A stretch of 64,000 bases of DNA from the NCBI GenBank assembly GCA_020619395.1, contig GCA_020619395.1_4860.1. The stretch is one strand, 5' to 3'. Position 1 is the first letter of the stretch, and every line of letters begins with the position of its first letter. A program made the position numbers and the translations under genes. This DNA is from a phage. The notes below the pieces were generated by a model that saw nothing but the letters and a program-made list of their open reading frames with translations, did not search any database and was not told where the DNA came from. Positions 11,792 to 32,532 of the stretch are shown piece by piece.

Positions 11792-12706
11792 ATGACAGAT
11801 CAAGTAGAATCCAGGATCTCGTCTGAACTGTACGACAAACCGTCAATTCTGTCGGTTGTCGCAACTTCTAAGTGTAACTTAGACTGTAGCTTCTGTGGAG
11901 GGGCTTATTACATGGATAGAGAAGATACTTCTCGTGAGTTTCAACGCGAAGAGATTCTCTCGATTTTAGAGAAGAATCCGGATATCGGTGAGATTCATTG
12001 GACGGGCGGTGAGCCGCTGTTAGCGCAGCGTAAGATTGAAGACTTCGTGAACGAGTTGAAGGAGTCTCATCCGAACCTCCGTCATCACATGTACACCAAC
12101 GGTTTAAAGATGCGTAAATCACATCTGCCGTTGCTGAAACAGTTCGACCTTATCTTTGTGTCCATTGACGGCTACAAGAAGTCGGAACGTCCGTTTATGA
12201 ACTTTGTAAACGGTGGTAATCACGAAGCGCTGGAAGTGCTGTACGAGCTGGACAACTATTACACCTGGGGTGTGATGACGCGTGACCAGTTAGGTGATAA
12301 ACGCTGGTACGAAGATTTCATCGAGCTGCACCGAGCAATCTATCATTACCGTCCAGGTGGTGTGTCGTTGTTGTTTGATGCGATGATGCCGAAACCGTTA
12401 TCGCCAGACCACGTCATGAACTTCATGTACGGGTATTGGAAAATACTCGACAATATCGAACGCCTTAACATGCAGAACGATTCTGAATGTGGGCTCGCGA
12501 TCAGTAAAATGTTCGATACCGAGTGCAACACGTGCAGTGAAGTGCTGTGGCTTAACGCCGACGGTACGCAGGAGCAAATTCAGAACGCCCCAGAGATATT
12601 GGAAGTCGGCTGTAATCGCCTGGCGCGTTCTATCGGCGTTGATGCGTATAACTACATCAACCGTGTAATTTCTGCTAAGCGTAAACGGGCGGCGAACAAT
12701 GAGTAA
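11792..12706 (+). CDS. Radical SAM enzyme (304 aa)
   Basis: CNLDCSFCGG CxxxCxxC motif near N-terminus; additional C-terminal Cys cluster (ECNTCSE..VGC). Start moved to ATG 11792 (tracked 11756). Confidence 0.75.
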   Translation: MTDQVESRISSELYDKPSILSVVATSKCNLDCSFCGGAYYMDREDTSREFQREEILSILEKNPDIGEIHWTGGEPLLAQRKIEDFVNELKESHPNLRHHMYTNGLKMRKSHLPLLKQFDLIFVSIDGYKKSERPFMNFVNGGNHEALEVLYELDNYYTWGVMTRDQLGDKRWYEDFIELHRAIYHYRPGGVSLLFDAMMPKPLSPDHVMNFMYGYWKILDNIERLNMQNDSECGLAISKMFDTECNTCSEVLWLNADGTQEQIQNAPEILEVGCNRLARSIGVDAYNYINRVISAKRKRAANNE

Positions 12707-14027
12707 TAGCGAACAGCAAATCCAGTACACACCACGCACGTATCAGGTTGTGACTAACCTGTCATGTAACCTGGACTGCGAATACTGCTACGAGCGTAAA
12801 TATCCGCGTAACAACAAAGTAGCAGACGTGATTGATTTTATCCACGCTTGTTTCGAGCGCGATAAAGATATCCCGAACGTTGAAGTCATCATCGATATCA
12901 TCGGTGGTGAGCCGTTCATGCAGCCTAAACTTCTTTTGGCGGCCTTTGAAACCGCAGAGAAGTTATGCGCAGAACACAATCGCCCGTATATGTTCAGTAT
13001 CTCCACGAACGGTACGCTTCTGGACCGTCCGCTGAACAAAGAAATTATCGAGCGCTGGAAAGACAAACTGTCTATTGGGGTCTCCATCGATGGTTTACCT
13101 GAAGTCCATGACAAATATCGTATCTTTACCACGACGCGTGAAGGGTCGTACGAAGCTGCGGTACGCGGTTACAATTATCTGAAGAGTGTTGGCATCGCTG
13201 AACTGGGCGTAAAAGCGACGTTTACGATCGATACATTGCCGCACTATGCCGCCAGCATGAAATCGTTAATTGACATGTCCGGCGGTGGTACCATTTCTGG
13301 TAATGTAACGTACGAAGATATCCTGCCGCGCCATATGGCGTTGGATATCGCGAACCAGATGATGGACGTGATGGACTACTGGATTGAGAAGGGTCTGCAC
13401 ACCAACCCGCGTAACACGATTACACACATCATCCCGGATGGCCTGAACTTTATGGCAACTTGGGACCCGGATTGGCGTGACAAACTCTTACACGACGACT
13501 CTGTTCGTCTCGACCCAGAACGCCTGAAACCGTACTGCGGTACGTTGACGCACATGACCTGTCTCGGCTTTGATCGCAAGATTTACGGTTGTAACCGTTT
13601 CATGTCCACGGTAACTTCCCGCTCTGCTGTAGCGGAACTGGTCGGTCGTGAGTTTGTGAGTCTGGACGGTGGTAAGCTGTTAGAAGAGATTCAAACGCAG
13701 TACACCAACTACCCAGAAACCTGTTTAGGGTGTCCGATGAAACACAGCTGCGGTAGCTGCGCAGCGGCATCGTACGAAAACGGTGAAGGTACACTGGAAG
13801 ACCGTAAAGCGTATCACGCCGAGCGTCGTCAGTGTGGTTGGACTACTGCGAAGCTGATGGCGGCGGAATATTGGTATCAGAAAACTGGTACGACTCGCGC
13901 ATCAGATTTGCACGATAAATCCATGTGCTATTGTTCACGTTGTGTACGCCAACGTGCCGAAGCAGAAAAATTACAAAACGGAGCCCAGAATGAAGTCAAT
14001 ACTGATTCACAATTTTACGAAGCGTAA
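12699..14027 (+). CDS. Radical SAM enzyme with SPASM/twitch-like C-terminal Cys-rich domain (442 aa)
   Basis: CNLDCEYCYERK CxxxCxxC motif; C-terminal CLGCPMKHSCGSCAAAS..CGW..CYCSRC cluster typical of auxiliary Fe-S domains. Confidence 0.75.
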   Translation: MSNSEQQIQYTPRTYQVVTNLSCNLDCEYCYERKYPRNNKVADVIDFIHACFERDKDIPNVEVIIDIIGGEPFMQPKLLLAAFETAEKLCAEHNRPYMFSISTNGTLLDRPLNKEIIERWKDKLSIGVSIDGLPEVHDKYRIFTTTREGSYEAAVRGYNYLKSVGIAELGVKATFTIDTLPHYAASMKSLIDMSGGGTISGNVTYEDILPRHMALDIANQMMDVMDYWIEKGLHTNPRNTITHIIPDGLNFMATWDPDWRDKLLHDDSVRLDPERLKPYCGTLTHMTCLGFDRKIYGCNRFMSTVTSRSAVAELVGREFVSLDGGKLLEEIQTQYTNYPETCLGCPMKHSCGSCAAASYENGEGTLEDRKAYHAERRQCGWTTAKLMAAEYWYQKTGTTRASDLHDKSMCYCSRCVRQRAEAEKLQNGAQNEVNTDSQFYEA

Positions 14028-15284: not shown

Positions 15285-15812
15285 TTAAACGAATCCGTCC
15301 AGTTCACCGTTGGTGGTGCTCAGGTCAGTTTTAACGATTGGCTGCGTTACAGTATAAACTGCAAGGCTGGCAGGCTGGTATTTAATGTGGCCTTCTTTCA
15401 CCATAACAGTGATGATTTTCTCACCACTGTCGCCGTCCTCGCGTGAAATGGTGAGTTCAGACAATGCAAACGCATCTTCCGTTTTACCGGCGGCAATTAG
15501 ATCTGCGTTGACAAAAGCAAGCACTTCTTCATCGGTATCCCATTCTGCCTGGTCAGCGGTAACTGCTTTCGCACCGATGATGTTCAATGAATCGAGGCGG
15601 GTATAATGCAGCTCTTTCTCGCCAGTAAAGTTAGCGGATTCCGCGGTGGCAGTGATGGTGAGTTTGGAGTTGCGAGTGTCTCCAGAATCTGCTGGTGAAT
15701 AGTCAGCAACAGCGCCGAATGTAACGTCAGCAGAAGTTAACGGACTAGACAGTCCGCTGTTTGCAGCATTAAACAGCGCAACGAGTTGGTCTTTTGCAGA
15801 GATGACTGCCAT
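15285..15812 (-). CDS. Short member of fibre-module family (175 aa)
   Basis: N-terminal module (LVALFNAAN..RNSKLTITA..ELHYTRLDSL) plus C-terminal TNGELDGFV shared with C-type paralogs. Confidence 0.65.
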   Translation of the reverse strand: MAVISAKDQLVALFNAANSGLSSPLTSADVTFGAVADYSPADSGDTRNSKLTITATAESANFTGEKELHYTRLDSLNIIGAKAVTADQAEWDTDEEVLAFVNADLIAAGKTEDAFALSELTISREDGDSGEKIITVMVKEGHIKYQPASLAVYTVTQPIVKTDLSTTNGELDGFV

Positions 15813-15892
15813 GGTTGTTTCCTTATAGTAGGTTTGTGGTGCATACTAAATCGTTCTAAAAACAACATAGTGGGCTTAATATGACAGTAAAG

Positions 15893-18703: not shown

Positions 18704-20881
18704 TTACGATAACGGTATCGTTGGCCGCACCCACGGTTTAGGGGCAGATTTGGTATACGGATTACATTCCATCATTTTACCGAGATACGCATCGTAATAC
18801 ACGAAGCGATCGACATAGAACCTCTCCACCGGTGTACTACTGGTAGCCGATTTCACCCGGTTGCGTTCCACAGCGAGGCCAATCACCCCGGTAGGCGCGG
18901 GTTTTAGGGTGAACATTACCGCACGGTTGTAACGCCAAGTGTCGTGCACAATATCAAACTCCGATACACTGTGTGCCATGATACCAAACAATGTGGTGGC
19001 TGGTAAGTTGGCTACAGCATCGCCGTATGGTGTTCCCACCAAACCGCCGGGTATGTTTTGCTTTTTGAACAGCGTACCTGAAATAATCGTACCTAAGAAC
19101 TCCACAACTACAGGTTTGGTTGGGTCGGTGACTTTATCTATCCCATCCGCACTGGCCAATCGGTTGGCATCTAAATCTGCGAGGTAGTCGAGGAACTCTT
19201 GGTACTCGTCGGTGACATTCGGTTTCACCGTTCCGACGGATACCCAGTTGACGATACTTTTATTCCCACCGACGGCTTCGCCTGCCATCCCAGGGCGAGT
19301 CCATGACATCCCGTCTTCACGACCGTAGACATAGACCGGCGAGCCGGTAGCCGGGGTGTTCCATTGCTCGAACGCTGTATATCGTCCCGGCTGGCCCCAA
19401 TCGCCACCAGGACCGCCATAGTAGCGACTCTGGTAGCCGGTAAATTGTGCGACGACTAACTGGGTAGCACCGCCTTTGTCACGGGACCCAGCTAAGCCGT
19501 TACGGTTATTGGTGCCGCTGGGTACCGCCGCGCCTGGCCCGAGAGGCGCACCACCAGCTCCACCGATCTTGGTGGTGCTAAACGCATAGTAGTCGCCCCC
19601 ACCCCCACCTCCGGCGATGGTGCCGTAGTTTTCGATGGTGACTTTGCCGCGGAAGGCATCGGTAATGTGGATTGCGTCAGCTCCGTCTGCTGATGTGTTC
19701 GCAGGCAGAGAATAGACCATACCCGAACCACCACGACCAAGAATGGTTCCCCGGTTAACGAAGTTCCAAACCACCTCGCCAATTTGCGGCAATTCGTCGA
19801 TAACGAACGTCGGTTTCAGGTTGCTGTCGCGATAAACGAAAGCCCCCGCATCTACGGTCACGTTAACAAACAAACGCCCGCACGCCGCATGGTTGGTCAA
19901 CGTCGTGGCCCAGTAGCTGTCCGAAACTTGCGACGTAGTTGTGTAGTTCAGGTTAAGGGTTTGCTCGTTATCTTGATAGCGTGCCACATTCAACGTGGCA
20001 CTGCCCATGACTTTGTACGAACCCTCCACAGGTGCCAATTGCACTTGTCTTGGCCACTCGCCTGCCAGGTCCTCTACGGGAGCAATTTCGTTTACATCAA
20101 AAACACTCCGAATGCCGAGTGTCTCGATGGCCAGAGCATCATGCAGGCTACCGGTGAAATCATCCGGGACGTATGTGGTTTTGCCTGCATATGTCTCGAG
20201 TTTGTTACGTGAAAAGAACACATACTTCGTTCCAAACATCCCGCTCCCCGGTCTAGCGGTCAAAGCCACGACGCTGTTATACGCAGAGGTTTGGCCTATA
20301 TCCTCCGGGGACATCGGGGCGCTGACATCGACTTTATCAAGATCCACGATCCGTTTGGTTGCATTAGAGTAGAAGTTAATCCACTGCTGTTTATTCGCAG
20401 CCTTTAGCGTGAGAATGATGTTGGTAACAGTGTAGACGGTGTTGATATCCACGTCACCGTTTATCACATCTAGCGTTTGGCTGCCGTACCAGACAAGACT
20501 TGTCTGTTTCGCCTGGAACGTGATGCGCGCAGCATTGTTTGTCCAAGTGATAGGCAGGTCTTCAAAGTCGTCGGTTAAAAAGGTAATCCCCAGTAAAGTG
20601 TCTAAATGCGGCAACAGTTCGTGAATGGATGCACAAGTGGGAATGGCATCCAACTTAACCTTAGCGAAATAATCAGCAATATTTTGCTTCGTGACTTGGG
20701 CCGTAATTTGACCGTAATTTGAATACCCCGGACCCCCTGTCAGTGTGACGTCTAGGGTTTTTTCGTCACGATGCGCCACGGACACCAGGCGTACGTTAGC
20801 GGGGTCTACTGCTTTGGCGACCGCGTTTTTACGGTTGAGCGACCGAATCACGGTCGCCACTAAATCGGGAGTGTAGGACAT
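18704..20881 (-). CDS. Fibre-module family protein with Gly-rich region (725 aa), candidate receptor-binding protein
   Basis: N-terminal family module (RKNAVAKAVDPANV..YGQITAQV); AGGGGGGDYY..GGAGGAPLGPG Gly-rich block; C-terminal NPYTKSAPKPWVRP shared with 20896-22215. Confidence 0.65.
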   Translation of the reverse strand: MSYTPDLVATVIRSLNRKNAVAKAVDPANVRLVSVAHRDEKTLDVTLTGGPGYSNYGQITAQVTKQNIADYFAKVKLDAIPTCASIHELLPHLDTLLGITFLTDDFEDLPITWTNNAARITFQAKQTSLVWYGSQTLDVINGDVDINTVYTVTNIILTLKAANKQQWINFYSNATKRIVDLDKVDVSAPMSPEDIGQTSAYNSVVALTARPGSGMFGTKYVFFSRNKLETYAGKTTYVPDDFTGSLHDALAIETLGIRSVFDVNEIAPVEDLAGEWPRQVQLAPVEGSYKVMGSATLNVARYQDNEQTLNLNYTTTSQVSDSYWATTLTNHAACGRLFVNVTVDAGAFVYRDSNLKPTFVIDELPQIGEVVWNFVNRGTILGRGGSGMVYSLPANTSADGADAIHITDAFRGKVTIENYGTIAGGGGGGDYYAFSTTKIGGAGGAPLGPGAAVPSGTNNRNGLAGSRDKGGATQLVVAQFTGYQSRYYGGPGGDWGQPGRYTAFEQWNTPATGSPVYVYGREDGMSWTRPGMAGEAVGGNKSIVNWVSVGTVKPNVTDEYQEFLDYLADLDANRLASADGIDKVTDPTKPVVVEFLGTIISGTLFKKQNIPGGLVGTPYGDAVANLPATTLFGIMAHSVSEFDIVHDTWRYNRAVMFTLKPAPTGVIGLAVERNRVKSATSSTPVERFYVDRFVYYDAYLGKMMECNPYTKSAPKPWVRPTIPLS

Positions 20882-20895
20882 GGTGACACCTTAGT

Positions 20896-22215
20896 CTATA
20901 GCGGTGGATACCAAGGGACCGGGGCGGTTTTGCTATATGGACTGTAGACCATATAGCCGCCTTTGCTTGGGTCGTAATAGATGAAATAGTTACAGTAATT
21001 CGAGTAAATGCTCGTCATTTGTTTGGATTGGTATCCGTTACGGTATAGTCCCTGGTAAGTAATAGCTGATGTCGTGGTGGTGTAAGCAGTGTGGTACAGT
21101 ACCCGACGCCGGTTAGCAATACTTTCTTGGAACATTTCTTCGGTCGGAAACGCGTGTTGCATCAGCCGTCGAATACTCCCGGTACAGTATCGAGTGCCAT
21201 ACGGGGAACCCGTTAAATCATCCGCAGTTTCAGGCGATTCTGCCCGAGTCAACACGTACTCGTTTTGATACAACGTGACGCTCATCGAATTTGGGCTGGT
21301 TTCCCGGAAACTCATGTAACGCGCATAACGTTCGACGTCCTCTTCCTGCGCCAAATAGGCCACGTTATTTTTCGGACCAAAGTGCAAGAAGAACGGACGG
21401 CGGAGATTACCCATATCCTCAGGTGGCGTCAACTTCACGCAGTAATTGTACTCCCCACGCATATCAGGGTCTAAGCCTGGGTTGTTATTGCGTGTAGCGA
21501 CATACCCATAGAGGTCATACGGGTTATCAGTAGCAGCATTACCGATAGTGAACGGGATGCCCGACCATGCCGACAGCGCCGCGATGAACTGGGTCATGTA
21601 CGAGTTACTGTTTAGTCGCAGCGGGGTACCCATCGGGATATTGATTATCTGTTGGGTGTACATGCTCCAGTCGAGTCGATAGACCGTGCTGTAAACATCC
21701 ATGGGTTCCCAAGCTCCGGTTTCGGTGGTGTGGTACAAGTCGGCAAAGCTGGGCTCTTCACGAATAAAGCTAATAGGAATGTGACCCGTGAATGCGGGGT
21801 TATCCGATTTAATCGCCACCGTCCGATCGCCCGTTGCCACAGTGATCATTGCAAACTGGCTGTCAGGATACGTTAAATCGTCAGCAGTAAGCACCAGCCC
21901 ACAAGCTGCGGAAATCCGGTCGATGATGTCGCGGTAGGACGTCGCCCGATAAGGTACTTTAACCGGTACGCTGACGCCTTTAAAATACTGCGAAAGGTTT
22001 AAGCGGTCGTAGTAGATGTCCATCTTACCGCTGTAACCGCCACCCTGTAATCCGTTTACCACTATACGGCTGTTGCGGCCATCGCGCAAGGCATTGGTTA
22101 AAGGACCTTGTAATAACGCCACGTTGGTTGCGTTGAGTGGTTTCTTGAGCTGCGGGTTATCACGATTAATCTGATCCCAAACCAGCTGCATGACAGGTTT
22201 GTTATAGTTGATCAT
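20896..22215 (-). CDS. Fibre-module family protein (439 aa)
   Basis: N-terminus MINYNKPVMQLVWDQINRDNPQL..RNSRIVVNG..IYYDRLNLSQYF; C-terminal SPYSKTAPVPWYPPL. Confidence 0.65.
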   Translation of the reverse strand: MINYNKPVMQLVWDQINRDNPQLKKPLNATNVALLQGPLTNALRDGRNSRIVVNGLQGGGYSGKMDIYYDRLNLSQYFKGVSVPVKVPYRATSYRDIIDRISAACGLVLTADDLTYPDSQFAMITVATGDRTVAIKSDNPAFTGHIPISFIREEPSFADLYHTTETGAWEPMDVYSTVYRLDWSMYTQQIINIPMGTPLRLNSNSYMTQFIAALSAWSGIPFTIGNAATDNPYDLYGYVATRNNNPGLDPDMRGEYNYCVKLTPPEDMGNLRRPFFLHFGPKNNVAYLAQEEDVERYARYMSFRETSPNSMSVTLYQNEYVLTRAESPETADDLTGSPYGTRYCTGSIRRLMQHAFPTEEMFQESIANRRRVLYHTAYTTTTSAITYQGLYRNGYQSKQMTSIYSNYCNYFIYYDPSKGGYMVYSPYSKTAPVPWYPPL

Positions 22216-22393: not shown

Positions 22394-23296
22394 TTAGCTA
22401 AGAACCAGTTCGATAACGTGGACTACCGACGCGCTATTGGTCGAAGAGGTGTACGATGGTGTGTCTGGTGAGTTGCTGCGATAGTACCAGGGGGTGGCGT
22501 TGTCATAACCGTTGGCAAACAATGTTGCGCTTGAATCGGTTGGACTACCGCCGGAGCGCGCCGGTAAGTCGCCAAAACGTCTTACGACGCCCGCGTAGCG
22601 GAACAAGCTTGCGAACGTGTTGTGCCACTCGCCATCTTGAAAATAACCACCGCTGCTTAGGTAGGTGCTGTGCCCATAACTGTAGTCTCCGAGTCGAGGC
22701 AAACGTACCACATACTCGTAACCGTCTTTATTAAATGTCCGACGCTGGTTAGTGGTAGCGACGCCCCGTGGCGGGAAACCGTAGTCATCTGTTCCCCAGG
22801 CCAGACCTTGCTGGTATTGTTCGTTCCACGTCGTCCCTAAACGGGTCACCGTGTCAGGAATGAACAGAATGCGTCCTTTGAAAACGAATTTATGGAACAA
22901 TGTTGGAGCTTGGTTCCAGGCATTAAAGCCAATTAAACCATTCAGCTCGGCATGGTTAAGAATAAATTCTTCGTTTGTCAGTGTGCCAAAGTAGCCACGA
23001 TGCCAATCGCCACGAATAAGTTCCTGTGGGCCGGGCCCTGTCATTGGAAAGTCGCCCTGTACAATCGGCAGCCCCATAACCTTTTCAGTGCCCTTTACCG
23101 CCACGATGCGATATTGATACGTTTTATACGCCTCGGTGGTCGTGTCCTCGTACGTCGTTGTGTTACCTGGTAGTGTTACAATAGGTTCCCCCGGTGCTAC
23201 TGGGTTAACACTTTGTCTGGGGTTGTCGTAACGATAGATTTCAATGGAATCTAAAGTCTGACCTGGCTGTTGTTTCCAGTTTAAGATAATCGACAT
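22394..23296 (-). CDS. Fibre-module paralog type A, triad 3 (300 aa)
   Basis: FN3-like N-terminus (TTYEDTTTEAYKTYQYRIVAV) and central GPGPQELIRGDWHRGYFG..ELF..HKFVFKGRILF domain. Confidence 0.7.
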   Translation of the reverse strand: MSIILNWKQQPGQTLDSIEIYRYDNPRQSVNPVAPGEPIVTLPGNTTTYEDTTTEAYKTYQYRIVAVKGTEKVMGLPIVQGDFPMTGPGPQELIRGDWHRGYFGTLTNEEFILNHAELNGLIGFNAWNQAPTLFHKFVFKGRILFIPDTVTRLGTTWNEQYQQGLAWGTDDYGFPPRGVATTNQRRTFNKDGYEYVVRLPRLGDYSYGHSTYLSSGGYFQDGEWHNTFASLFRYAGVVRRFGDLPARSGGSPTDSSATLFANGYDNATPWYYRSNSPDTPSYTSSTNSASVVHVIELVLS

Positions 23297-23299
23297 GTT

Positions 23300-24298
23300 T
23301 TACTCCACTAACTCGATAACGAATGCGTACAAACCGACCTTCTCAGCACTGTCAATTAACGTAACTTGGGAGAGGTTACGTTTCGACGTATTGGTTATGC
23401 TTGAATCGATAGGCGCAGACCCGCGAACCAGAACTAATCCCGATTCAGGATCACGTTCTTGGCACAAGAAACCTTTGCCTTGGTAAGCGCTACCGCTCCC
23501 ATAAATGGACGCTGGACTAATATTAGTCCAGTTAGGGAGCATTTGTTTGTTAGGGATACAATCTCCGAACGGATAAACAAAATCGTTATATTCGCAGCGA
23601 CCATATTCCAAGTCATCATGGTCTGCGTTTCGCAACGATTCATCCAATGTCATTACTGTCGGTTCGTCCCCGTCGGTTAAACCGCGCAGCAATCGCATCC
23701 GATAGGTGTCGCCTTGCCATTCAAACAACCCACTCTGGTCAACACCTGCCAAATCCCCACGTCCGTTATCAGGACCAAATCCATCAACACCGTACACAAG
23801 CCCCGCGTTATAAATGTCATTCCACGAGTAAAGTGTAGAGTTAAATCGTCCGCCGCTGTTCATCATGTAGTAAACTTTACCATGTCGATAAAACTTGTTC
23901 ATGATTAGCGTGCCCGTGCCCGATATCCCTGTTAATGCACGAAAGCCTGCAGGCAACGCGTCATAGGTCATCTGTTCTTCGAACGGCAACTGCCCCAGAA
24001 ACGCCAAGTCGTCAGTATCGGAATAGTTAATCTGGTCGACGCCACCCACACCACGACGGTTTTTAATGACAATGGATTTTTGTGGACTACCTACGGTACG
24101 GCCGTTAACAGTTACTGTTAAAAGATACCAGTAACGGGTGTTAAGAATAACGGTTTCGTCCGTCCATTCCGTTTCGCCATTACTTAAAGTTGCAATAGGG
24201 GCTGGTAATGCGGCTGTATTTATTTTAGCCGTGCCCCGATAAATGTTAACAATTGAACCTGCCGGATTTTCATTTTTCCAGCGTAGTGTGAATGCCAT
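23300..24298 (-). CDS. Fibre-module paralog type B, triad 3 (332 aa)
   Basis: MAFTLRWKNENPAGSIVNIYRG.. N-terminus; AAGGAG RBS; 3-nt gap to A gene. Confidence 0.7.
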   Translation of the reverse strand: MAFTLRWKNENPAGSIVNIYRGTAKINTAALPAPIATLSNGETEWTDETVILNTRYWYLLTVTVNGRTVGSPQKSIVIKNRRGVGGVDQINYSDTDDLAFLGQLPFEEQMTYDALPAGFRALTGISGTGTLIMNKFYRHGKVYYMMNSGGRFNSTLYSWNDIYNAGLVYGVDGFGPDNGRGDLAGVDQSGLFEWQGDTYRMRLLRGLTDGDEPTVMTLDESLRNADHDDLEYGRCEYNDFVYPFGDCIPNKQMLPNWTNISPASIYGSGSAYQGKGFLCQERDPESGLVLVRGSAPIDSSITNTSKRNLSQVTLIDSAEKVGLYAFVIELVE

Positions 24299-24308
24299 CT
24301 GTTACTCC

Positions 24309-25751
24309 TTAGAAGCCGTTCAACTCACCGTTCGCGGTTGCTAAATCTGTTTTAAGTGGAGGTTCTGCCTGAGTAGGCGGTAGTGGACGCGGTGCGTCGA
24401 CGTGTGGTTCAAGTACAACCATCGGCCTAACTGTACCTACGCTGTTCGACACTGTCGATAACGGCAGCGCAGTATCGACGTTTGGTTCACCCACCACAAT
24501 CGGGCTGATAGGTTCTTCCACCTGTTCCGCAGTTGTTGCTAGAGGTCTCGGCGCATCTGTTGTCGCAACCTCGACTGCAAGAGGGCGAATGCTATCAGGT
24601 TGTGGTGATGGTACATTAGGAATAACCCTAACGCGCCACACAACATCCCCTTCCACATCAGCTAAAGATAAGACGATGTCGTCCTTATTGATTTCCTCTA
24701 AAACAGGCCACCAGTAAGTGGTATCTGTAAGGGTTACCCATTCAACTGAGCCACCGCGCATATTGCAACGTTGTACTTTAACAGGGTTACCCCCGGTTAA
24801 CAGTTGTTGCGTGAAGAAGACGGTGGTTCTGGTTAACGTGGTGTCATTTGCCCAGTCGCCGCCCGTAGAACCGTCACCGAGTTGTGAAATAAGCCACAAC
24901 GGTGTGGCCTTTGATAAATCAGGGCTAACCGGAACGGAGACGCGGTAATAATGCGTCTTGTTATTCTCAGTTTTCGTGACAATCAAAGCCTGGTCAACAG
25001 GTTCGATACCGTCTGGATACGGACCAGTGTCACCTGTACCGAAAATGGCACCCGCTTGATAAAGGGCCGTCCAGGTTGCTGTTAACGTTCCGGTAGTCGG
25101 TAGATAAACAATCTTACCATCCTTGAAAAATTTCAACCATTCGAAAGTCATTTTCGTTGGGGCAACATCAGGACGAATTAGGTTGTTTAGTTCAGCAAAG
25201 GTAAATAACTCTTGCTGAGAAACGTGGCCGAAGTATCCGTTTGTGCTGTCCCCTGCCAACAAATATTTATTGCCTGGCCCAGAATCTGGATAGTAGCCCA
25301 CGGCTTCATTCAAATAATCGACCGGGATATAGCCGCGATAGCATACGCTATTATACGCGGTTAAATTAATACGTGTTGGCGTTGCCAGCGATTTGATAGG
25401 CGCGTCTACCGACTGTACACTGCTATCAGATAACCAAACACCGTATAAATCGCGTAGAGCTGGGAGAAGATCCCGCACGGTCTTGGCCGTTTGTGGTACG
25501 TAGACGCGCGGAGCTATTTTAAATAGATCTGATAATGTTAAACGGTCGTAATAAACCGTGCACTCCCCAGAGAAACCTTTACCGGGTTTACCTACCAACG
25601 TAATTACCGTGTTACGACCATTCTTAGTGGTCTCGGCAGGAATACCCCTCACCCCAATCGAATCAGCGCTGATTCTTCCTGCGAGTTCAGGGTTATCCCT
25701 TACGACTTGTTGGCAGAGCAATTCCAGTTCGGGTGCGCTATACAATCCCAT
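24309..25751 (-). CDS. Fibre-module paralog type C, triad 3 (480 aa)
   Basis: N-terminal family module (VRDNPELAG..GRNTVITLVGKPGKGF..VYYDRLTLSDLF), central GPG..GYFG..ELF domain, DAPRPL repeats, C-terminal TANGELNGF. Confidence 0.7.
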   Translation of the reverse strand: MGLYSAPELELLCQQVVRDNPELAGRISADSIGVRGIPAETTKNGRNTVITLVGKPGKGFSGECTVYYDRLTLSDLFKIAPRVYVPQTAKTVRDLLPALRDLYGVWLSDSSVQSVDAPIKSLATPTRINLTAYNSVCYRGYIPVDYLNEAVGYYPDSGPGNKYLLAGDSTNGYFGHVSQQELFTFAELNNLIRPDVAPTKMTFEWLKFFKDGKIVYLPTTGTLTATWTALYQAGAIFGTGDTGPYPDGIEPVDQALIVTKTENNKTHYYRVSVPVSPDLSKATPLWLISQLGDGSTGGDWANDTTLTRTTVFFTQQLLTGGNPVKVQRCNMRGGSVEWVTLTDTTYWWPVLEEINKDDIVLSLADVEGDVVWRVRVIPNVPSPQPDSIRPLAVEVATTDAPRPLATTAEQVEEPISPIVVGEPNVDTALPLSTVSNSVGTVRPMVVLEPHVDAPRPLPPTQAEPPLKTDLATANGELNGF

Positions 25752-25762
25752 GAAGTCTCCTG

Positions 25763-26662
25763 TTAAGGCAGAACGAGTTCAAGTACCGCAATGGAGCGTA
25801 TTGTAGTGGTACCGTAGTTACTCCATGCCGGCGACTCAGGGTAAGGTGGACGGTTGTACCACTGACTGGACGTGTTATTCATAGCCGCAAAGAATGCAGA
25901 TTGTTGGGCAGTAACCGAATCGATTGAACCGACCGGAAGGTCGTCAAAGCGCGGAAACTGCCCACTGTAGTTGTACAGGCGCGCGAAGGTGTTAAACCAC
26001 TCACCGTCGAGATACAACTCAGTGTTACCGCTTCCAACGTAAGACGTCCAGTATTTGTAGTCGAACAAATACGGCAAGCGCACCACGTATTCGTAACCGT
26101 TCTTCGCCACCGTGCGGCGTTGGTTACGTGCAGTAGCCCAGCCCGGTACATATCCATTGCCATCCTGGCCGTACATCATCCCCTGGTTATAAATGAACTG
26201 CGGGCTAGCGTTTATTATCGAGTTATCGGACATAAACAGAATACGGTTTTTGTAAATGAATTTATGCCAGGCACCAACGGCGGAACTGAACATATTCACC
26301 ACGAGGCCGTTCAGTTCCGTGTTAGTGAATAACTCTGCTGGCGTTACTGTTCCAAAGTATCCAGCGTGCCAGTCGCCGTATAACAGTTTCTGGGGGCCAG
26401 GCCCGGTGTCTAAAAAGAACCCTTGGGCGGTAGGGGTGTTGAAGACACGCTCACCGTCTTTAACCGCAGCTATCCAATAACGGTAAGTGGTGTTGTTTTC
26501 CACAGCGTTGTCTTCGTACGATGTAGCGTCACCCGGAAGGGTTGCCAGAGGCGTTCCCGGTGCATTAACATCAATTGTGGCGTTGCCCGGCGTCTTGCGA
26601 TAGATTTCGATGTTATCGAGCGCCTGTGGCTTCCGTTGTGCAAAGTGTAATGTAATAGGCAT
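25763..26662 (-). CDS. Fibre-module paralog type A, triad 2 (299 aa)
   Basis: Start set to ATG 26662 (MPITLHF..), 2 nt after upstream stop; tracked 26698 start overlaps. About 60% identity to the other A copies in the central domain. Confidence 0.7.
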   Translation of the reverse strand: MPITLHFAQRKPQALDNIEIYRKTPGNATIDVNAPGTPLATLPGDATSYEDNAVENNTTYRYWIAAVKDGERVFNTPTAQGFFLDTGPGPQKLLYGDWHAGYFGTVTPAELFTNTELNGLVVNMFSSAVGAWHKFIYKNRILFMSDNSIINASPQFIYNQGMMYGQDGNGYVPGWATARNQRRTVAKNGYEYVVRLPYLFDYKYWTSYVGSGNTELYLDGEWFNTFARLYNYSGQFPRFDDLPVGSIDSVTAQQSAFFAAMNNTSSQWYNRPPYPESPAWSNYGTTTIRSIAVLELVLP

Positions 26663-26664
26663 GA

Positions 26665-27654
26665 TTAATCCTCGATAAGCTCGATTACTGGAATCCAAAT
26701 ACCGCCCACGGTCGCACCAGGGACATGTTGTATACGCTGGAGGTTATCCACGGTATCAGTGGAATCCGCCGCCGCCAATCCGCGCGTCAGCCCCAACTTA
26801 CGTTCTGGGTCAAACTCCTGACAATGCGCCCCACGGCCTGCCACCAGCGATCCATTTCCGAATATGCTGGAGTTCGACCACTTTATCAGGGACATCACTT
26901 TTTTCTTTTCTGGGAACCAGCTACTTATCCCATAGATGAGTCGGTTGTATTCGCTATCGGCAGTATACGGTGACGCGTCATGGAGTTTACCGTCCCACTG
27001 TGCATCGAGTGTCATGACCGGGCTTTCACTGTCGAGTGTTAAACCGCGCAGCAGGCGCATCCGATAGCGGTCACCCAACCACGTAAACTCCCCAGCCTGG
27101 TCAACGTCAGGTAAATCGCCATGACCGCCTTCCGGACCAGGTCCCGCCACACCGTACAGCAAACCCGCGTTATAAATCGCATCACGGCTATACAGCGTGT
27201 TGCCGTTCACACGAAGACCACTAAACAGATACAGAATTTTACCGTCTAGCTGGAACTTCATCAAGCCCGGCTTAACAGTTGGGTCGTATCCAGAAAGGGC
27301 CACAAACCCTGGCGGATAATCACCCGCGCTAGGTAATTCACCGTACGCCACGTACCCGTAATACGCAAAGCGGTCATCACCGTACTGTGGAGCCACGATG
27401 CCGATACCGCGACGGTTCTGAATTAGAATTGATTTCTGCGGACTGAACAGTGTCCGACTTCCCACTGTCACGGTGGTCATGTAGTAATACGTTGTCCCCA
27501 GTATCGCTGTTCGGTCAGTATACTCAGTTTCCCCGTTAGTGAACGTTGCCAGGGGTTCAGGTAATGCCGTACGCACCAGAGGTTTGGTGTCGCGGTACAG
27601 CTTCACGGTCGAAGCCCCAGGGTTATTGTTCGTCCAACGAATTGTAAAAGCCAT
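26665..27654 (-). CDS. Fibre-module paralog type B, triad 2 (329 aa)
   Basis: MAFTIRWTNNNPGASTVKLYRD.. homologous to the other B copies. Confidence 0.7.
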   Translation of the reverse strand: MAFTIRWTNNNPGASTVKLYRDTKPLVRTALPEPLATFTNGETEYTDRTAILGTTYYYMTTVTVGSRTLFSPQKSILIQNRRGIGIVAPQYGDDRFAYYGYVAYGELPSAGDYPPGFVALSGYDPTVKPGLMKFQLDGKILYLFSGLRVNGNTLYSRDAIYNAGLLYGVAGPGPEGGHGDLPDVDQAGEFTWLGDRYRMRLLRGLTLDSESPVMTLDAQWDGKLHDASPYTADSEYNRLIYGISSWFPEKKKVMSLIKWSNSSIFGNGSLVAGRGAHCQEFDPERKLGLTRGLAAADSTDTVDNLQRIQHVPGATVGGIWIPVIELIED

Positions 27655-27666
27655 TGTCGTTACCTC

Positions 27667-29163
27667 TTATTGGAATCCATCCAACTCACCGTTAGTATCG
27701 CCCAGAGTAATTTTTGAAGGTTGGGCGATTTGGTCAGTCGTGAGAATAATCGGTCTAATCTTAACGCTAGCCATGCCTGTTACCGCGACGGAATATGCAC
27801 GTTCATCATTGTCCGTCGTGGCAAGCAGAGGACGTGGTGAGTCTGATGACGCTTCCCGCAGCCAGGCAGGGGTGGCAGTTTCGGTGTTGTCGGTGTTGAA
27901 AACTAACGGACGTGGATTCGCTGCGGCGGAGGTTTCCGTAATAGGCACCACACGAAGCGATTCATTTTGGTCGATGTCCGTCAGAGTAACCACGGACGGT
28001 GCCCATGTTAGCTCTGCACCTTCGTCAATCAACGGCACAGGTTCATTGGCAACATCAAACATCTCCAGGATTGGCCAAAAGCCAGAAGAGGTGTAGATGT
28101 AGGTGTTTGAACGATAGCTCGCGCTGATAGACTGGTAATACGCTTGGTCGGCACCGAACTGGTGTCGTAACCACACGTAATCCAGGAAGTTAGCATCAGT
28201 CGTGCTAAGAGTTCCCCACTCCCCATATACGTTCACCGACCCCAATTTGCTGGTCAGTGACAGGATAGAGGTGATTGACGGCGGTTTACTCCAATCAGGC
28301 GCGGCGGCGTTCTCGGTGTAATACGGGATAGACATTCTGAAATAATGCGTTCCTTCATCATCCCGTTTTACCATGTATTTCAACTGTTCAACATCGACAG
28401 GTGTGTAAGTCGACTTCGGGCGAGGTCCTGCGTCTCCGGAATCAAATATTGCACCCTTGTTGTACAGGTCTGCCCAGGTAACGTTGCAAATCGCACGGGT
28501 CGGAACAAACACTACCGCCCCATTCAGAAAGAATTTGAGCCACTTGATAGCGTAGCGGTTAGGCCAGTTGGTGCCGTTATAAAGGGCATACACCATTTCA
28601 TCAGATGTGAATAACTCTTCCGCGCTTACCAGCCCAAAGAATCCGTATAACTCATTACCAGCCATTAATCCTTTTGGCCCAGGACCCGACTTCGGATACA
28701 TCGCAATCGGTTCGTAAACATAGGTCATCTTGCATGACCCGGTATAGCACAAGGAGTTAGCGTGCGCCGTCAGAGTTACAGTTTCCGGCGTAGCGTATTT
28801 CATTAATGCAACGTTTGGACTGGTGATATCACTCGCGGTTAAGTTCAACCCGTTCAATTCATTGAACGCCGGTAACGCTTCCGCATGGGTTTGTGCGCTA
28901 CGTGGAATACTCACCATATTCGGGCCAGACTTAAATAGACTGGCCAGATTCAACCGGTCGTAATATACCGTTATTTCCCCAGCAAATCCTTTACCGGGTT
29001 TTCCTACCAACGTAATCTGAGTGTTTCGTCCGTTAACGTTTTTCGCAACAGGAACACCCCTGACCCCAATGGAGTCAGGGGTGATTTTTCCTGCTAAACC
29101 GGGATTGTCACGCACAATTTGTTGGCAGAGCAGTTCCATTGAAGGTTCTGTATACAACCCCAT
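27667..29163 (-). CDS. Fibre-module paralog type C, triad 2 (498 aa)
   Basis: N-terminus about 75% identical to the triad-3 C copy; NPRPL/SPRPL repeats; C-terminal TNGELDGFQ. Confidence 0.7.
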   Translation of the reverse strand: MGLYTEPSMELLCQQIVRDNPGLAGKITPDSIGVRGVPVAKNVNGRNTQITLVGKPGKGFAGEITVYYDRLNLASLFKSGPNMVSIPRSAQTHAEALPAFNELNGLNLTASDITSPNVALMKYATPETVTLTAHANSLCYTGSCKMTYVYEPIAMYPKSGPGPKGLMAGNELYGFFGLVSAEELFTSDEMVYALYNGTNWPNRYAIKWLKFFLNGAVVFVPTRAICNVTWADLYNKGAIFDSGDAGPRPKSTYTPVDVEQLKYMVKRDDEGTHYFRMSIPYYTENAAAPDWSKPPSITSILSLTSKLGSVNVYGEWGTLSTTDANFLDYVWLRHQFGADQAYYQSISASYRSNTYIYTSSGFWPILEMFDVANEPVPLIDEGAELTWAPSVVTLTDIDQNESLRVVPITETSAAANPRPLVFNTDNTETATPAWLREASSDSPRPLLATTDNDERAYSVAVTGMASVKIRPIILTTDQIAQPSKITLGDTNGELDGFQ

Positions 29164-29176
29164 GGTATTTACTCCA

Positions 29177-30100
29177 TTACGGTAAGACTAATTCAAAAGC
29201 AAAGAATATCGTGGCCGAGTTCCCGACACCTGCGGTGTTACTAATCCCCATAGGCACGGTGCCATACGCATAAGCGAATATGTTGTTGCTCCACAAAGGA
29301 GCTAATACAGCGGCACCTGACTCATTCGGCTGCGCAGTCGCGCCTTGTCTTTCAAGTGAGTCAATCGCACCAAGACCGAGGGCTGCGTACTGTGCACCGA
29401 CAGGATACAAACGGCCCATTGTGTTTCGCCATTCACCGTTGTTGTAATCCTGTCCTGAGAGTGCCGCGTCGTACGGGACTGCGTAAGGTAATCGGATACG
29501 GTACGTACGACCATCCTTCGTGACCTTACAATCTTGTTTAGTCGCCGTGGCTCCCTGCGGAACAATACTTCCGACATCATCGGTCCCGTACATCATGCCG
29601 TACTGATACGCCATTTGTACCGAGTTGCTTTTCGAATGCATCGTCGCTGGGAAGAAGACAATTCGCCCACGGAAAATAAACTTGTGCCATTCCTGAGGGT
29701 CGTAAGTAAACATGTTTCCCTGCTGCGCGGTTAACATGAGTTTTAACTCGGCAGTATTAAAGAACTCGGTATTAGATACCGTACCGAAATAGCCTGACGC
29801 CCAATCGCCACGCAAAATAGTTTGTGGCCCCGGTCCAGTGTCCGGATAGAACCCTTGCGTAATCGGATTGCCGATAAGTCGTTCACTATCTTTCACAGCA
29901 GCTACCCAGTAACGATAAGTTGTATTCTTCGTCAGGGTATCGATATTATCTACGAACTCTACCGCGCTACCGGATAAGGTGGCGTGGGGTGTACCTGGGT
30001 TGTAAACGTCGATTGTTGCGTTCCATCCTTCCTTGCGGTAGATTTCAATCGCGGTAAGACCTTTGCTGGCTTGGGACGGCCAGCTTAACCGTATAGTCAT
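29177..30100 (-). CDS. Fibre-module paralog type A, triad 1 (307 aa)
   Basis: GPGPQTILRGDWASGYFG..EFF..HKFIFRGRIVFF central domain; AAGGGG RBS. Confidence 0.7.
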   Translation of the reverse strand: MTIRLSWPSQASKGLTAIEIYRKEGWNATIDVYNPGTPHATLSGSAVEFVDNIDTLTKNTTYRYWVAAVKDSERLIGNPITQGFYPDTGPGPQTILRGDWASGYFGTVSNTEFFNTAELKLMLTAQQGNMFTYDPQEWHKFIFRGRIVFFPATMHSKSNSVQMAYQYGMMYGTDDVGSIVPQGATATKQDCKVTKDGRTYRIRLPYAVPYDAALSGQDYNNGEWRNTMGRLYPVGAQYAALGLGAIDSLERQGATAQPNESGAAVLAPLWSNNIFAYAYGTVPMGISNTAGVGNSATIFFAFELVLP

Positions 30101-30109
30101 GACTGCCCC

Positions 30110-31108
30110 TTACTCGACCAGTTCAAAGATAGGGTAGTAGCGCCCTTTCGTGGTGGGTGATAAATAGTTTATACGCTGAATCGTGGATACGGGTGTTCCA
30201 CCGGCATTGTTAAAAATACCACGATGGAGCACACGGTCTTCCGCGGTATCGTGTTCCATACAGAGAACACCACCGCCGAAATACTGTGCCAAGGTTCCCA
30301 AAGTACCTTGCCCCAGATAAGTATAACCGATTGTTGCCCAGTTAGCCCAACGCTGTTTCTTCGGCACCTCGTTAACCATCGTGTAAAGTAAATCGTTATA
30401 CTCACACGGGTTGGTTAGAGAAGCGATTTCATCATGGGTTTTCCCATTATAGTCAGCTACGAAAGGATACGCAGGAGGCTCGCTAGACATCGTCAGGCCG
30501 CGAGGAAGACGCATGATGTACGTATCCCCTTTGTGGACTATCTTAGCGTCTTGTGGAGTGGCCGGTAGCGTTCCATGGCCGTTCTCTGGACCAGCATCGC
30601 CCGTACCATAGACTAAACCAGCTTGATAGAGGGAAGCCCAGTCCACAGGCGTATTCGGGAACTGCGACGTGCTAGATAGCATGTAATAGATCTTCCCGTT
30701 TCGGGTAAATTTATACAACGCCACACGATCGGTTAGTAGGTTAGGGAACATCGCCAAAAATGCAGGTGGCATTTGCGACGGAAGCCACTGTTCGTCGTAA
30801 GGAACCGCACCCATAAACCCTAAACGGTCGTCACCGTTTAGAATAGTCATTGGACCGATCCCACGCTTTATCTCAATGGTGTATTTCTGGCTAGACGATG
30901 CCACTGTTTTACCGTTGGCGGTTACCGTCAGAAGGTAATAATAGGTTGCGCCTGGTGTGGCGGTGGTATCACGCCATTCTGTCTCGCCATTTGAGAGCGT
31001 TGCAATCGGTTCAGGCAAAGCGCTTGGTGTGATATCTTTAACATCACGGTAGATTTTTACTACCGTAGGGATTACGTTTGGATTTTTCCAACGCAAAGTA
31101 AAAGACAT
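30110..31108 (-). CDS. Fibre-module paralog type B, triad 1 (332 aa)
   Basis: MSFTLRWKNPNVIPTVVKIYRD.. homologous to the other B copies. Confidence 0.7.
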   Translation of the reverse strand: MSFTLRWKNPNVIPTVVKIYRDVKDITPSALPEPIATLSNGETEWRDTTATPGATYYYLLTVTANGKTVASSSQKYTIEIKRGIGPMTILNGDDRLGFMGAVPYDEQWLPSQMPPAFLAMFPNLLTDRVALYKFTRNGKIYYMLSSTSQFPNTPVDWASLYQAGLVYGTGDAGPENGHGTLPATPQDAKIVHKGDTYIMRLPRGLTMSSEPPAYPFVADYNGKTHDEIASLTNPCEYNDLLYTMVNEVPKKQRWANWATIGYTYLGQGTLGTLAQYFGGGVLCMEHDTAEDRVLHRGIFNNAGGTPVSTIQRINYLSPTTKGRYYPIFELVE

Positions 31109-31119
31109 AGATGATACCT

Positions 31120-32532
31120 CTACTTAAAGCCGTCCAGTTCACCGTTAAGAGACGTTAACGTTGTCTTGTCAGGGGGCGTATACATTTCAGCGGTAGCCGC
31201 AATAGGTTGGAAGTCGACTGTCTTCGGCAGCATTAAAGCAGGCGGATGCAGTGCGAAACTGTTTTCTGAAGTAACAACTACCGGTTCGAAATCGGTAGTA
31301 TCCGGATTACCGAGCACTAACGGCTTGAGACTAAATGTGTTTTCTGCGGACACGCTGCACGGTTGGAGACTGTAATCTGCCGTACCGTGGATATCTTCTA
31401 AACCCAAGGTAACTGTGGACTTATCCACCAACTCCAGCACCGGGAACCAGTAGTAGTTGCCCGCACTCGATGATTTTTCTAAGTTTGTCCAACTTGCTCC
31501 AGACAACGTCGCCATGCGATGATTGGCGACGTTGGTCTTCAGTGTATCTTTCAATAAACAGAACAGCGTCCAGTAACTGTTAATCGGTTTGTCCCACGTT
31601 CCATTATACAGAAAGTTGAACATCTCAAACTCACTACCTGCTAACTCAGCGGCAGTTGGGGTGCCGCTGACGTATGGGTCTTTCCCGGCACTAGGTAGAC
31701 GAACGCGGAAGTAAAACCTTTTGTTGTCTGCGCCTGTAAAGCTAATGATGCGTCCCTGGTTAACGGGCGTCGCCGCAGGGTATTTACCATTATCGTCTGT
31801 TCCGTAAACGAGTCCGTTTGTATATAACGTATTCCAGGAGATGGAGCTAGCGACAGGACTGATCGGAAGGTAAATAACCCTACCCTGGTAAAAGAACTTG
31901 TACCAACCTTCGGCACCAGAATGTACCGGTGGTAACGCACCGGCCGATATAGTGGCATTAAGAAGTTGAGAGTGTGTAAACAACTCTGCAGTTCTGGTTG
32001 TTCCGAAATAACCCGCGATAGTGTTACCTTGCAGCAACGTTTTAGGGCCAGGTCCAGAATCGGGGTAAATTGCACCACTCGGGACGGTATAACGTATCGT
32101 TAAGCTGCCTGTAAACGCAGGGCAATTGCCTGAGATATTTAATTTCAACGTCTGCGGCGAAACGCTCGGTTTAGGTAAACTTGCGTCAGGTGACTGCAAA
32201 TCAGAAGCAACTAATGTAAGCCCCAATGCGTCGTTTATTGCAGGTAGCGCGTCTCGTACCGTTAAGACTGTATCTTTGATAGCCACAGTCGGCACAAAAT
32301 TAAATAAAGTGGCCAGGTTAATCCGGTCGTAGTACACGGTAACATTACCTTGTACACCTGTCCCTGGATACCCGGTGAAAACAGCTTTGGTGTTACGTTG
32401 GTTTAACGTAACTGAAGTTGGGCCACTGGTTAAAGCAGCGATAGCCGGCGTCAGCTTAACAACTAAATCAGGGTTATCCCGATTGACTTGGTCGTATACA
32501 AGCAGTGCCGACTCCTTCGAGTAAAATAGCAT
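31120..32532 (-). CDS. Fibre-module paralog type C, triad 1 (470 aa)
   Basis: VNRDNPDL..RNTKAVFTGYPGTG..VYYDRINLATLF N-terminal module; C-terminal LNGELDGFK. Confidence 0.7.
   Translation of the reverse strand: MLFYSKESALLVYDQVNRDNPDLVVKLTPAIAALTSGPTSVTLNQRNTKAVFTGYPGTGVQGNVTVYYDRINLATLFNFVPTVAIKDTVLTVRDALPAINDALGLTLVASDLQSPDASLPKPSVSPQTLKLNISGNCPAFTGSLTIRYTVPSGAIYPDSGPGPKTLLQGNTIAGYFGTTRTAELFTHSQLLNATISAGALPPVHSGAEGWYKFFYQGRVIYLPISPVASSISWNTLYTNGLVYGTDDNGKYPAATPVNQGRIISFTGADNKRFYFRVRLPSAGKDPYVSGTPTAAELAGSEFEMFNFLYNGTWDKPINSYWTLFCLLKDTLKTNVANHRMATLSGASWTNLEKSSSAGNYYWFPVLELVDKSTVTLGLEDIHGTADYSLQPCSVSAENTFSLKPLVLGNPDTTDFEPVVVTSENSFALHPPALMLPKTVDFQPIAATAEMYTPPDKTTLTSLNGELDGFK

Follow-up and report, generated by a model that had tools for sequence, protein, structure and literature searches.

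DUF7941 proteins in phage virions

Among the unexplained components of chimallivirus virions, the DUF7941 proteins belong to the most abundant, and the rule by which they assemble has so far been an AlphaFold hypothesis. The authors of the 2026 Goslar preprint employed AlphaFold3 to predict that the linker of one gp22 protomer, together with the C-terminal domain, docks on the N-domain of the next protomer. The same docking was predicted for gp23, which does without the C-terminal domain, and purified gp22 was shown to form filaments by negative-stain electron microscopy. The Goslar virion contains more than 2500 copies of DUF7941 proteins. In Salmonella phage SPN3US the proteins known as 'paralog family B' are DUF7941 proteins; the family has about 20 members, all of which occur in the virion, two of them (gp160 and gp141) in more than 300 copies. 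Here we analyse a stretch of 64,000 nucleotides of DNA from an SPN3US-like giant Salmonella phage (contig GCA_020619395.1_4860.1; the window below), in which four DUF7941 proteins end with a common short tail, NGEL[D/N]GF. One of them is a protein of 175 residues, and the other three, named C1, C2 and C3, carry an additional cargo domain.

The region of the C genes (24309–32532) shows 98–99% identity to SPN3US and related members of the genus Seoulvirus in nucleotide comparison. By synteny with the SPN3US record, C1, C2 and C3 were assigned to gp151, gp148 and gp145, respectively, and the 175-residue open reading frame (ORF) to gp160; all four genes lie on the minus strand. The virion association of the four proteins rests on the published mass spectrometry of their SPN3US orthologues. 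From sequence comparison and structure models we infer, with a probability of roughly 0.55, that the tail is a DUF7941 connector that binds an N-domain, does so in trans on a neighbouring subunit, and has a role in filaments. Earlier publications have described the DUF7941 family and put forward its head-to-tail assembly. New here are the conserved terminal motif as a candidate donor, the split module of the C proteins with its periodic tether, and the motif at the junctions of tandem arrays.

A common C-terminal tail on four proteins

The six-frame translation of the window contains exactly four NGEL[DN]GF sites, in gp151, gp148, gp145 and gp160, each 0–1 residue before the stop codon. By our rough composition estimate, about 6e-4 matches would be expected by chance. 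The first-pass annotation of the window had described an invariant NGELDGF C-terminus. The shared ending does occur on all four proteins, including the 175-residue protein at 15285, but it is not invariant, since gp151 (C1) ends with NGELNGF. The residue preceding the first asparagine is A, T, L or T across the four tails. The conserved unit comprises 14 residues, K-x-x-L-x-x-x-N-G-E-L-[DN]-G-F, followed by 0–1 residue. Pairwise identity of this unit among the paralogues is 8–11 of 14 residues, and the gp160 tail is 71–79% identical to the C tails (10–11 of 14). Elsewhere the paralogues are far more divergent, with 21–24% identity in the spacers and, between gp160 and the C proteins, 19–22% in the N-domains.

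Codon choice differs synonymously among the four tails (GAA/GAG, CTG/TTG, GAC/GAT, GGA/GGC, TTC/TTT), and selection therefore acts on the peptide; the four tails are not copies of a DNA repeat. A DNA-level repeat or gene conversion was considered as the origin of the tails and is ruled out by these synonymous differences together with the lack of tandem DNA repeats. No mention of the NGEL[DN]GF tail motif was found in the searchable literature.

The tail is also kept in relatives. At least 60 gp160 orthologues of 45–95% identity, from Erwinia, Salmonella and Cronobacter phages and from metagenomes, retain KTDLSTTNGELDGF, followed by 0–9 variable residues. Homologues of the C type down to about 27% identity retain K-x-x-[LI]-x-x-x-[ND]-G-x-L-x-G-F behind a hypervariable spacer. 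In IMG/VR, exact TNGELDGF was found in nine ORFs, all of which (9/9) have a DUF7941 N-domain and carry the sequence 1–4 residues before the stop. A motif search in related phages, proposed in the first-pass annotation, is thus positive for the relatives of both gp160 and the C proteins, although the gp160 orthologues reveal that the motif need not be the extreme C-terminus. A tblastn search with a 45-residue fragment of the gp160-like clade from IMG/VR gave no match.

The near-identical sequence TNGEFDGF is found internally in an unrelated family of proteins of about 300 residues, which lack DUF7941 and are encoded on small viral contigs (IMG/VR L003, L005–L009, L011 and others). These matches are a chance by-product of a degenerate DNA pattern.

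Membership in the DUF7941 family

The four tailed proteins are members of DUF7941. Against the Pfam profile PF25613 they score 79 (C1), 105 (C2), 110 (C3) and 43 bits (gp160), the cut-off being 27 bits. The C proteins match positions 1–153 of the 276-position profile, and gp160 matches positions 7–101. In all four proteins the fold of the N-domain matches that of the solved N-domain of phiKZ gp127 (PDB 9XQD). The globular domain at the C-terminus of DUF7941 (profile positions of about 175–276) is absent from gp160 and from C1–C3. The same domain is missing from Goslar gp23 and from 15 of 150 family representatives, so that its absence marks a subtype and does not exclude membership.

The tail and the DUF7941 linker motif

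The canonical paralogues carry a conserved linker motif, such as TNTELSGLLYP, TQTKLDGLVYP or TTNVLTGLKYP, which separates their N-domain from their C-terminal domain. The profile of the gp160 family was aligned by hhalign with that of seven canonical paralogues, and it matched their N-domain plus linker end to end (1–175 versus 7–174, 97% probability, E value 8.7e-11). The gp160 tail falls on the linker region in this alignment, with a register slip of one residue. Residues 6–175 of gp160 are matched by phrog_2935, a profile of 180 positions from a family without the C-terminal domain. The last 33 or so residues of gp160 match the final 31 positions of the C-family profile phrog_3589 with an E value of 3e-6. 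A hidden Markov model (HMM) of the tail built from gp160 orthologues gave the three C tails as top matches among the ORFs of the window (E values from 4e-8 to 4.5e-3), and the canonical linkers were not found by it in this set.

A scan of 1.84 billion representative sequences with a profile of the N-domain plus linker returned 3223 relatives, and the family-wide counts given here refer to the top 150 of these 3223. The linker logo of the 150 representatives reads L-x-x-phi-[IV]-T-x-T-x-L(0.87)-[DGN]-G(0.64)-[LF]-x-Y-P. Lengths of the stretch behind the motif are bimodal, with 0–20 residues in 15 proteins without the C-terminal domain and 100–140 in 55 canonical proteins. Short members of the family end with '...TELDGLTLP' or '...DLNGFDST'. 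Likewise, SPN3US gp83 ends with '...KRALDGFRPGEFLNG', SPN3US gp237 with '...VTELNGLVYDVSDMAQA' and Goslar gp23 with '...NVADGFVKPTVSVVG'. In 59 of the 150 representatives several N-domains form a natural tandem array, with a median of about 2 residues between the motif and the N-domain that follows. Since the motif precedes the next N-domain in such arrays, a protein that ends at the motif resembles one unit of an array. In the C proteins the motif does not directly follow the N-domain; it appears about 330 residues later, at the C-terminus. By its position, the NGEL[D/N]GF tail is most likely the counterpart of the DUF7941 linker or connector motif.

A model of docking between subunits

The tail had initially been proposed as a shared interaction or docking signal. 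This proposal is supported by the positional match of the tail to the DUF7941 linker, together with the published docking predicted by AlphaFold3 and the filaments seen by electron microscopy. We assume that the tail is a local, strongly constrained form of the DUF7941 linker, i.e., a short peptide able to bind a DUF7941 N-domain. Subunits would be joined head to tail, the peptide of one docking on the N-domain of a second DUF7941 subunit. With the C-terminal domain missing from gp160 and the C proteins, the tail peptide would be their only donor element. The peptide alone would then have to carry the contact, which would explain its stronger conservation as compared to the internal motif of the full-length paralogues. 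In the C proteins, N-domain and motif appear to have been separated by the insertion of a cargo domain and a long flexible spacer, and this would place the motif at the C-terminus on a tether. In this way gp160, as the abundant filler, and the C proteins, as the cargo-bearing subunits, may be joined into virion-associated filaments or networks. The homologues of gp138–gp144 are likely both acceptors and donors in the same assembly system. A 14-residue peptide that would be the sole assembly element left on four proteins makes the docking hypothesis simply testable.

The contact could also be made within one chain. The tail would then be a part of the N-domain module and stabilise it by packing against the domain of the same chain; in the C proteins it would fold back over the cargo to reach that domain, and no subunits would be linked. 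The AlphaFold2 monomer model of gp160 gives a predicted local distance difference test (pLDDT) score of 83–88 for the tail, which is modelled as coil. A coil predicted with such confidence appears to be packed against the N-domain, in cis by necessity, as the model is that of a monomer. In the tandem arrays, too, the motif can equally be read as the end of each module of about 170 residues. Monomer models of head-to-tail polymers, however, often show trans contacts as if they were cis. Docking of the gp148 tail on its own N-domain was not seen in the AlphaFold2 model, where residues 380–498 are disordered (pLDDT below 50) and the tail is undocked. The near-identity of the tails (10–11 of 14 residues) on N-domains that are themselves only about 20% identical argues for a shared partner in trans. 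A tether of 88–116 residues would far exceed what folding back needs, and AlphaFold3 puts the linker of Goslar gp22 and gp23 on the neighbouring protomer. Taken together, these data leave the packing of the tail on its own domain as an unlikely reading, albeit a serious one.

Several observations weigh against docking of the tail on a neighbouring subunit. The confident gp160 tail may mean mere packing in cis, and the tail of the gp148 monomer scores a pLDDT of only about 41–44. A linker HMM of 22 positions, built from 149 family sequences without NGEL-like ones, scores the gp160 tail in the right place with an E value of about 1, and it misses the C tails. The isolated profile of the C tails gave no match to the canonical profile in hhalign. 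The spacing of the conserved leucine pair is 7 residues in the tail as against 9 in the family motif. As the tests with short profiles are not significant, the equivalence of tail and linker rests on position, intermediate forms and family context. Finally, the placement of the SPN3US proteins on tailless heads, described below, clashes with the picture of a 'fibre cloud' at the baseplate, which is not an argument against docking as such.

The metagenomic proteins P0190 (1496 residues) and P0199 (1166 residues) contain 10–13 tandem DUF7941 N-domain modules, each of which closes with the linker motif, and are in effect the proposed filament in covalent form.

Probable retention of the tail in the virion

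It had also been suggested that the tail is a processing signal, e.g., an autoproteolytic chaperone site. On this view it would flag the place of cleavage, or be what is left of an intramolecular chaperone. The tail is C-terminal on virion proteins and contains a glutamate, and the phage protease cuts after glutamate. Nevertheless, the SPN3US prohead protease gp245 cuts after A-x-E, and the tail carries N-G-E, which does not match this substrate motif. Neither a Peptidase_S74-like domain nor any Pfam domain other than DUF7941 was found in the four proteins at E values up to 0.1. A folded C-terminal chaperone domain of about 100–150 residues is likewise not seen in the AlphaFold2 model of gp148, in which this part of the chain is disordered. 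The 2023 SPN3US proteome tables list gp145, gp148, gp151 and gp160 as 'unlikely cleaved', and the orthologues carry variable extensions beyond the motif.

The published sequence coverage of gp160 is informative as well. Seven coverage values (PMC10052503 Table S5) fit only a denominator of 186 residues. This is the length of the stop-to-stop frame (15285–15845, minus strand), which consists of 11 untranslated codons upstream of the ATG and the 175 codons of the protein. The best coverage corresponds to 171 residues, that is, 175 minus the initiator methionine and the tripeptide NSK. With 171 of 175 residues covered, we infer that the 14-residue C-terminal tryptic peptide TDLSTTNGELDGFV must have been observed in virions. 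The coverage arithmetic was used as the tail peptide was not found in the supplement text of the 2017 and 2023 SPN3US papers. Terminal proteomics of virion proteins had been recommended in the first-pass annotation to detect cleavage near NGELDGF; as far as the published gp160 coverage goes, it points to retention of the tail and speaks against such cleavage. A retained tail had been named in that annotation as an observation that would count against its reading. The peptides TDLSTTNGELDGFV, ITLGDTNGELDGFQ, TDLATANGELNGF and TTLTSLNGELDGFK in mass spectrometry data would mean retained tails. Proteolysis is not supported by these data, and a role of the tail in processing is extremely improbable.

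The periodic spacer and the C-A-B cassettes

Each C protein consists of the DUF7941 N-domain, a cargo domain of about 210 residues that is weakly C-type-lectin-like, a disordered spacer and the tail. The spacer has 88–116 residues with a degenerate period of 26–27 residues, as revealed by BLOSUM autocorrelation (z of 6–7 versus shuffled sequences). The period is clearest in C3 (26 residues, z = 7) and recurs in most homologues. Tandem Repeats Finder detected no tandem repeat at the DNA level. The proline-rich repeated segments reported in the first-pass annotation are all present: DAPRPL occurs twice in C1 (residues 399 and 452), NPRPL (416) and SPRPL (442) in C2, and KPLVL (403) in C3. PRPL turned out, however, to be only the most visible part of the degenerate periodicity, and C3 has no PRPL. 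The spacer is hypervariable between C orthologues, and the tail of the C family is a conserved island after it.

A cassette of three genes, C-A-B with C first, is present three times (gp145–gp153, 22394–32532, minus strand), with gp154 and gp155 downstream and gp138–gp144 (about 280 residues) upstream. The region 24309–32532, previously ascribed to the C paralogues, does contain the three C genes, but it also holds six A and B genes with neither the repeats nor the tail. The A and B proteins have an FN3-like N-terminus and the cargo domain of about 210 residues in common with C, and end with ...ELV(E/LP/LS). They lack the DUF7941 N-domain, and their SPN3US counterparts are virion proteins.

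This gene order admits a further reading, in which the C tail, the spacer repeats or both recruit the adjacent A and B proteins, which are not themselves anchored by a DUF7941 domain. Behind every C gene lie one A and one B gene, and A and B are virion proteins that share the cargo domain of C and have no N-domain and no tail. By contrast, gp160 has the same tail and no adjoining A or B genes, and the spacer is hypervariable between orthologues. We regard docking within the cassette as very unlikely.

The mechanical start of the B2 ORF (25763–26698, minus strand) is a TTG that overlaps A2 by 34 nucleotides; SPN3US gp150 is annotated 36 nucleotides downstream, with the start MPITLHF.... In the GenBank records of Salmonella phages SPFM8, 9, 10, 12, 14, 15 and 20 (P0072, P0074, P0076, P0085 and P0092–P0095) the C and gp160 genes are block-scrambled. 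The segments of the N-domain are in reversed order there, and tblastn matches fall into 5 pieces. The scrambling has the look of an artefact, introduced in assembly or in the records, and not of biology.

Location in the virion

In T4 and phiKZ-like phages, the known capsid-targeting sequences lie at the N-terminus and are removed. This bears on the possibility that the tail is a signal for incorporation into the virion, which binds a scaffold or a component of the head, neck or collar outside the DUF7941 family. A single tail on otherwise different proteins would fit a common receptor, and tailless particles of SPN3US contain the family B proteins, gp145–gp155 and gp160 among them, at wild-type levels. 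Yet the motif corresponds in position to one that every canonical DUF7941 protein carries internally and that recurs at each junction of the tandem arrays, the tail differs from the targeting sequences named above, and the electron cryo-microscopy structure places phiKZ gp127 at the baseplate periphery. A dedicated incorporation signal is therefore distinctly unlikely.

The Goslar preprint likewise puts the fibre cloud at the baseplate periphery, and SPN3US is not cited there. Free filaments that co-purify with the particles, or attachment at the neck, could reconcile the head and the baseplate data. The conflict bears on the location of the host-recognition fibres on the particle.

A broader reading extends the docking of tails on neighbouring subunits. 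DUF7941 may form a modular 'peptide-in-domain' heteropolymer, in which the NGELDGF-type donor is a universal plug that allows the gp160 filler and the tethered lectin-like C1–C3 to insert anywhere in a fibre network, which in SPN3US-like phages would sit at the head or neck and not at the baseplate. Within such a heteropolymer, C1–C3 possibly carry A and B partners on the spacer repeats of 26–27 residues. We consider this speculative and rather unlikely; if true, it would be a new kind of virion surface organelle, the composition of which is encoded by donor and acceptor specificities.

Features of the window

The coordinates are collected in Table 1. Two cargo-bearing members of the family, the homologues of gp155 and gp154, lack the NGELDGF tail. 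The gp155 homologue (18704–20881, minus strand) has two tandem DUF7941 N-domains, followed by a Gp38-type adhesin domain and a C-terminal phrog_6409 domain. The adhesin domain is of the T-even Gp38 type (PF05268, E value 5.7e-18) with glycine-rich motifs. At the sequence level, this domain is the strongest hint in the window of a host-recognition role for the DUF7941 family. The homologue search with the N-terminal part of gp155 returned 3 proteins only, too few for a reliable model of the tandem. The gp154 homologue is a full DUF7941 protein plus a C-terminal phrog_6409 domain, as at the gp155 C-terminus. Beside the structural cluster are two adjacent radical SAM genes (12699–14027, plus strand, and upstream; SPN3US gp163 and gp164); a radical SAM protein of 442 residues has Cys-rich SPASM-like motifs.

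Table 1. Coordinates of the DUF7941 genes and of the tail-bearing segments in the window.
Feature	Coordinates	Strand	Remarks
gp160 homologue, 175 aa	15285–15812	-	DUF7941 N-domain and probable linker only, no C-terminal domain
gp160 tail, KTDLSTTNGELDGFV	15288–15332	-	motif 15291–15311
gp155 and gp154 homologues	18704–22215	-	cargo-bearing DUF7941 members, no NGELDGF tail
C1 (gp151 homologue), 480 aa	24309–25751	-	N-domain 25293–25751; cargo domain 24696–25292
C1 periodic spacer	24354–24695	-	
C1 tail, KTDLATANGELNGF	24312–24353	-	motif 24312–24332
C2 (gp148 homologue), 498 aa	27667–29163	-	N-domain 28699–29163; cargo domain 28063–28698
C2 periodic spacer	27715–28062	-	
C2 tail, KITLGDTNGELDGFQ	27670–27714	-	motif 27673–27693
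C3 (gp145 homologue), 470 aa	31120–32532	-	N-domain 32068–32532; cargo domain 31432–32067
C3 periodic spacer	31168–31431	-	
C3 tail, KTTLTSLNGELDGFK	31123–31167	-	motif 31126–31146
Seven full-length DUF7941 paralogues (gp144 to gp138 homologues), 265–303 aa	32581–38658	-	internal linker motif between N-domain and C-terminal domain

Comparison with known systems

The Peptidase_S74 chaperone domains of fibres and spikes resemble the tail in that they are conserved C-terminal elements on fibre-type proteins of phages. In contrast, they are folded, comprise about 100–150 residues with a catalytic Ser-Lys dyad and are cleaved off, whereas here a 14-residue motif lies on a disordered tether, has no Pfam match and, in the case of gp160, shows evidence of retention.

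In donor-strand polymerisation a short terminal donor peptide fills an acceptor site on the next subunit. The proposed docking would be analogous to this process in chaperone-usher pili, and to other head-to-tail fibre subunits, in concept: an acceptor domain is combined with a short terminal donor peptide. No relation in sequence or fold is seen, however. The candidate donor here is C-terminal and is modelled by AlphaFold2 as coil and not as a beta-strand, and there is no chaperone or usher.

The closest relatives are the DUF7941 proteins of Chimalliviridae, such as Goslar gp22 and gp23 and phiKZ gp126 and gp127, which share with the tailed proteins the sequence and fold of the N-domain, the association with the virion and, most likely, the position of the linker motif. 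Members of the family carry cargo of the host-recognition type. Three differences are apparent. The tail falls short of the family motif by two residues and is far more conserved. In the C proteins the cargo and the spacer precede the linker motif, resulting in a split module, whereas the cargo-bearing proteins of Goslar have the DUF7941 module at the N-terminus and the cargo after it. The SPN3US members have been assigned to the head and not to the baseplate. Goslar gp23 consists of the N-domain and the linker without the C-terminal domain, a layout that gp160 most likely shares, and both proteins occur at high copy number.

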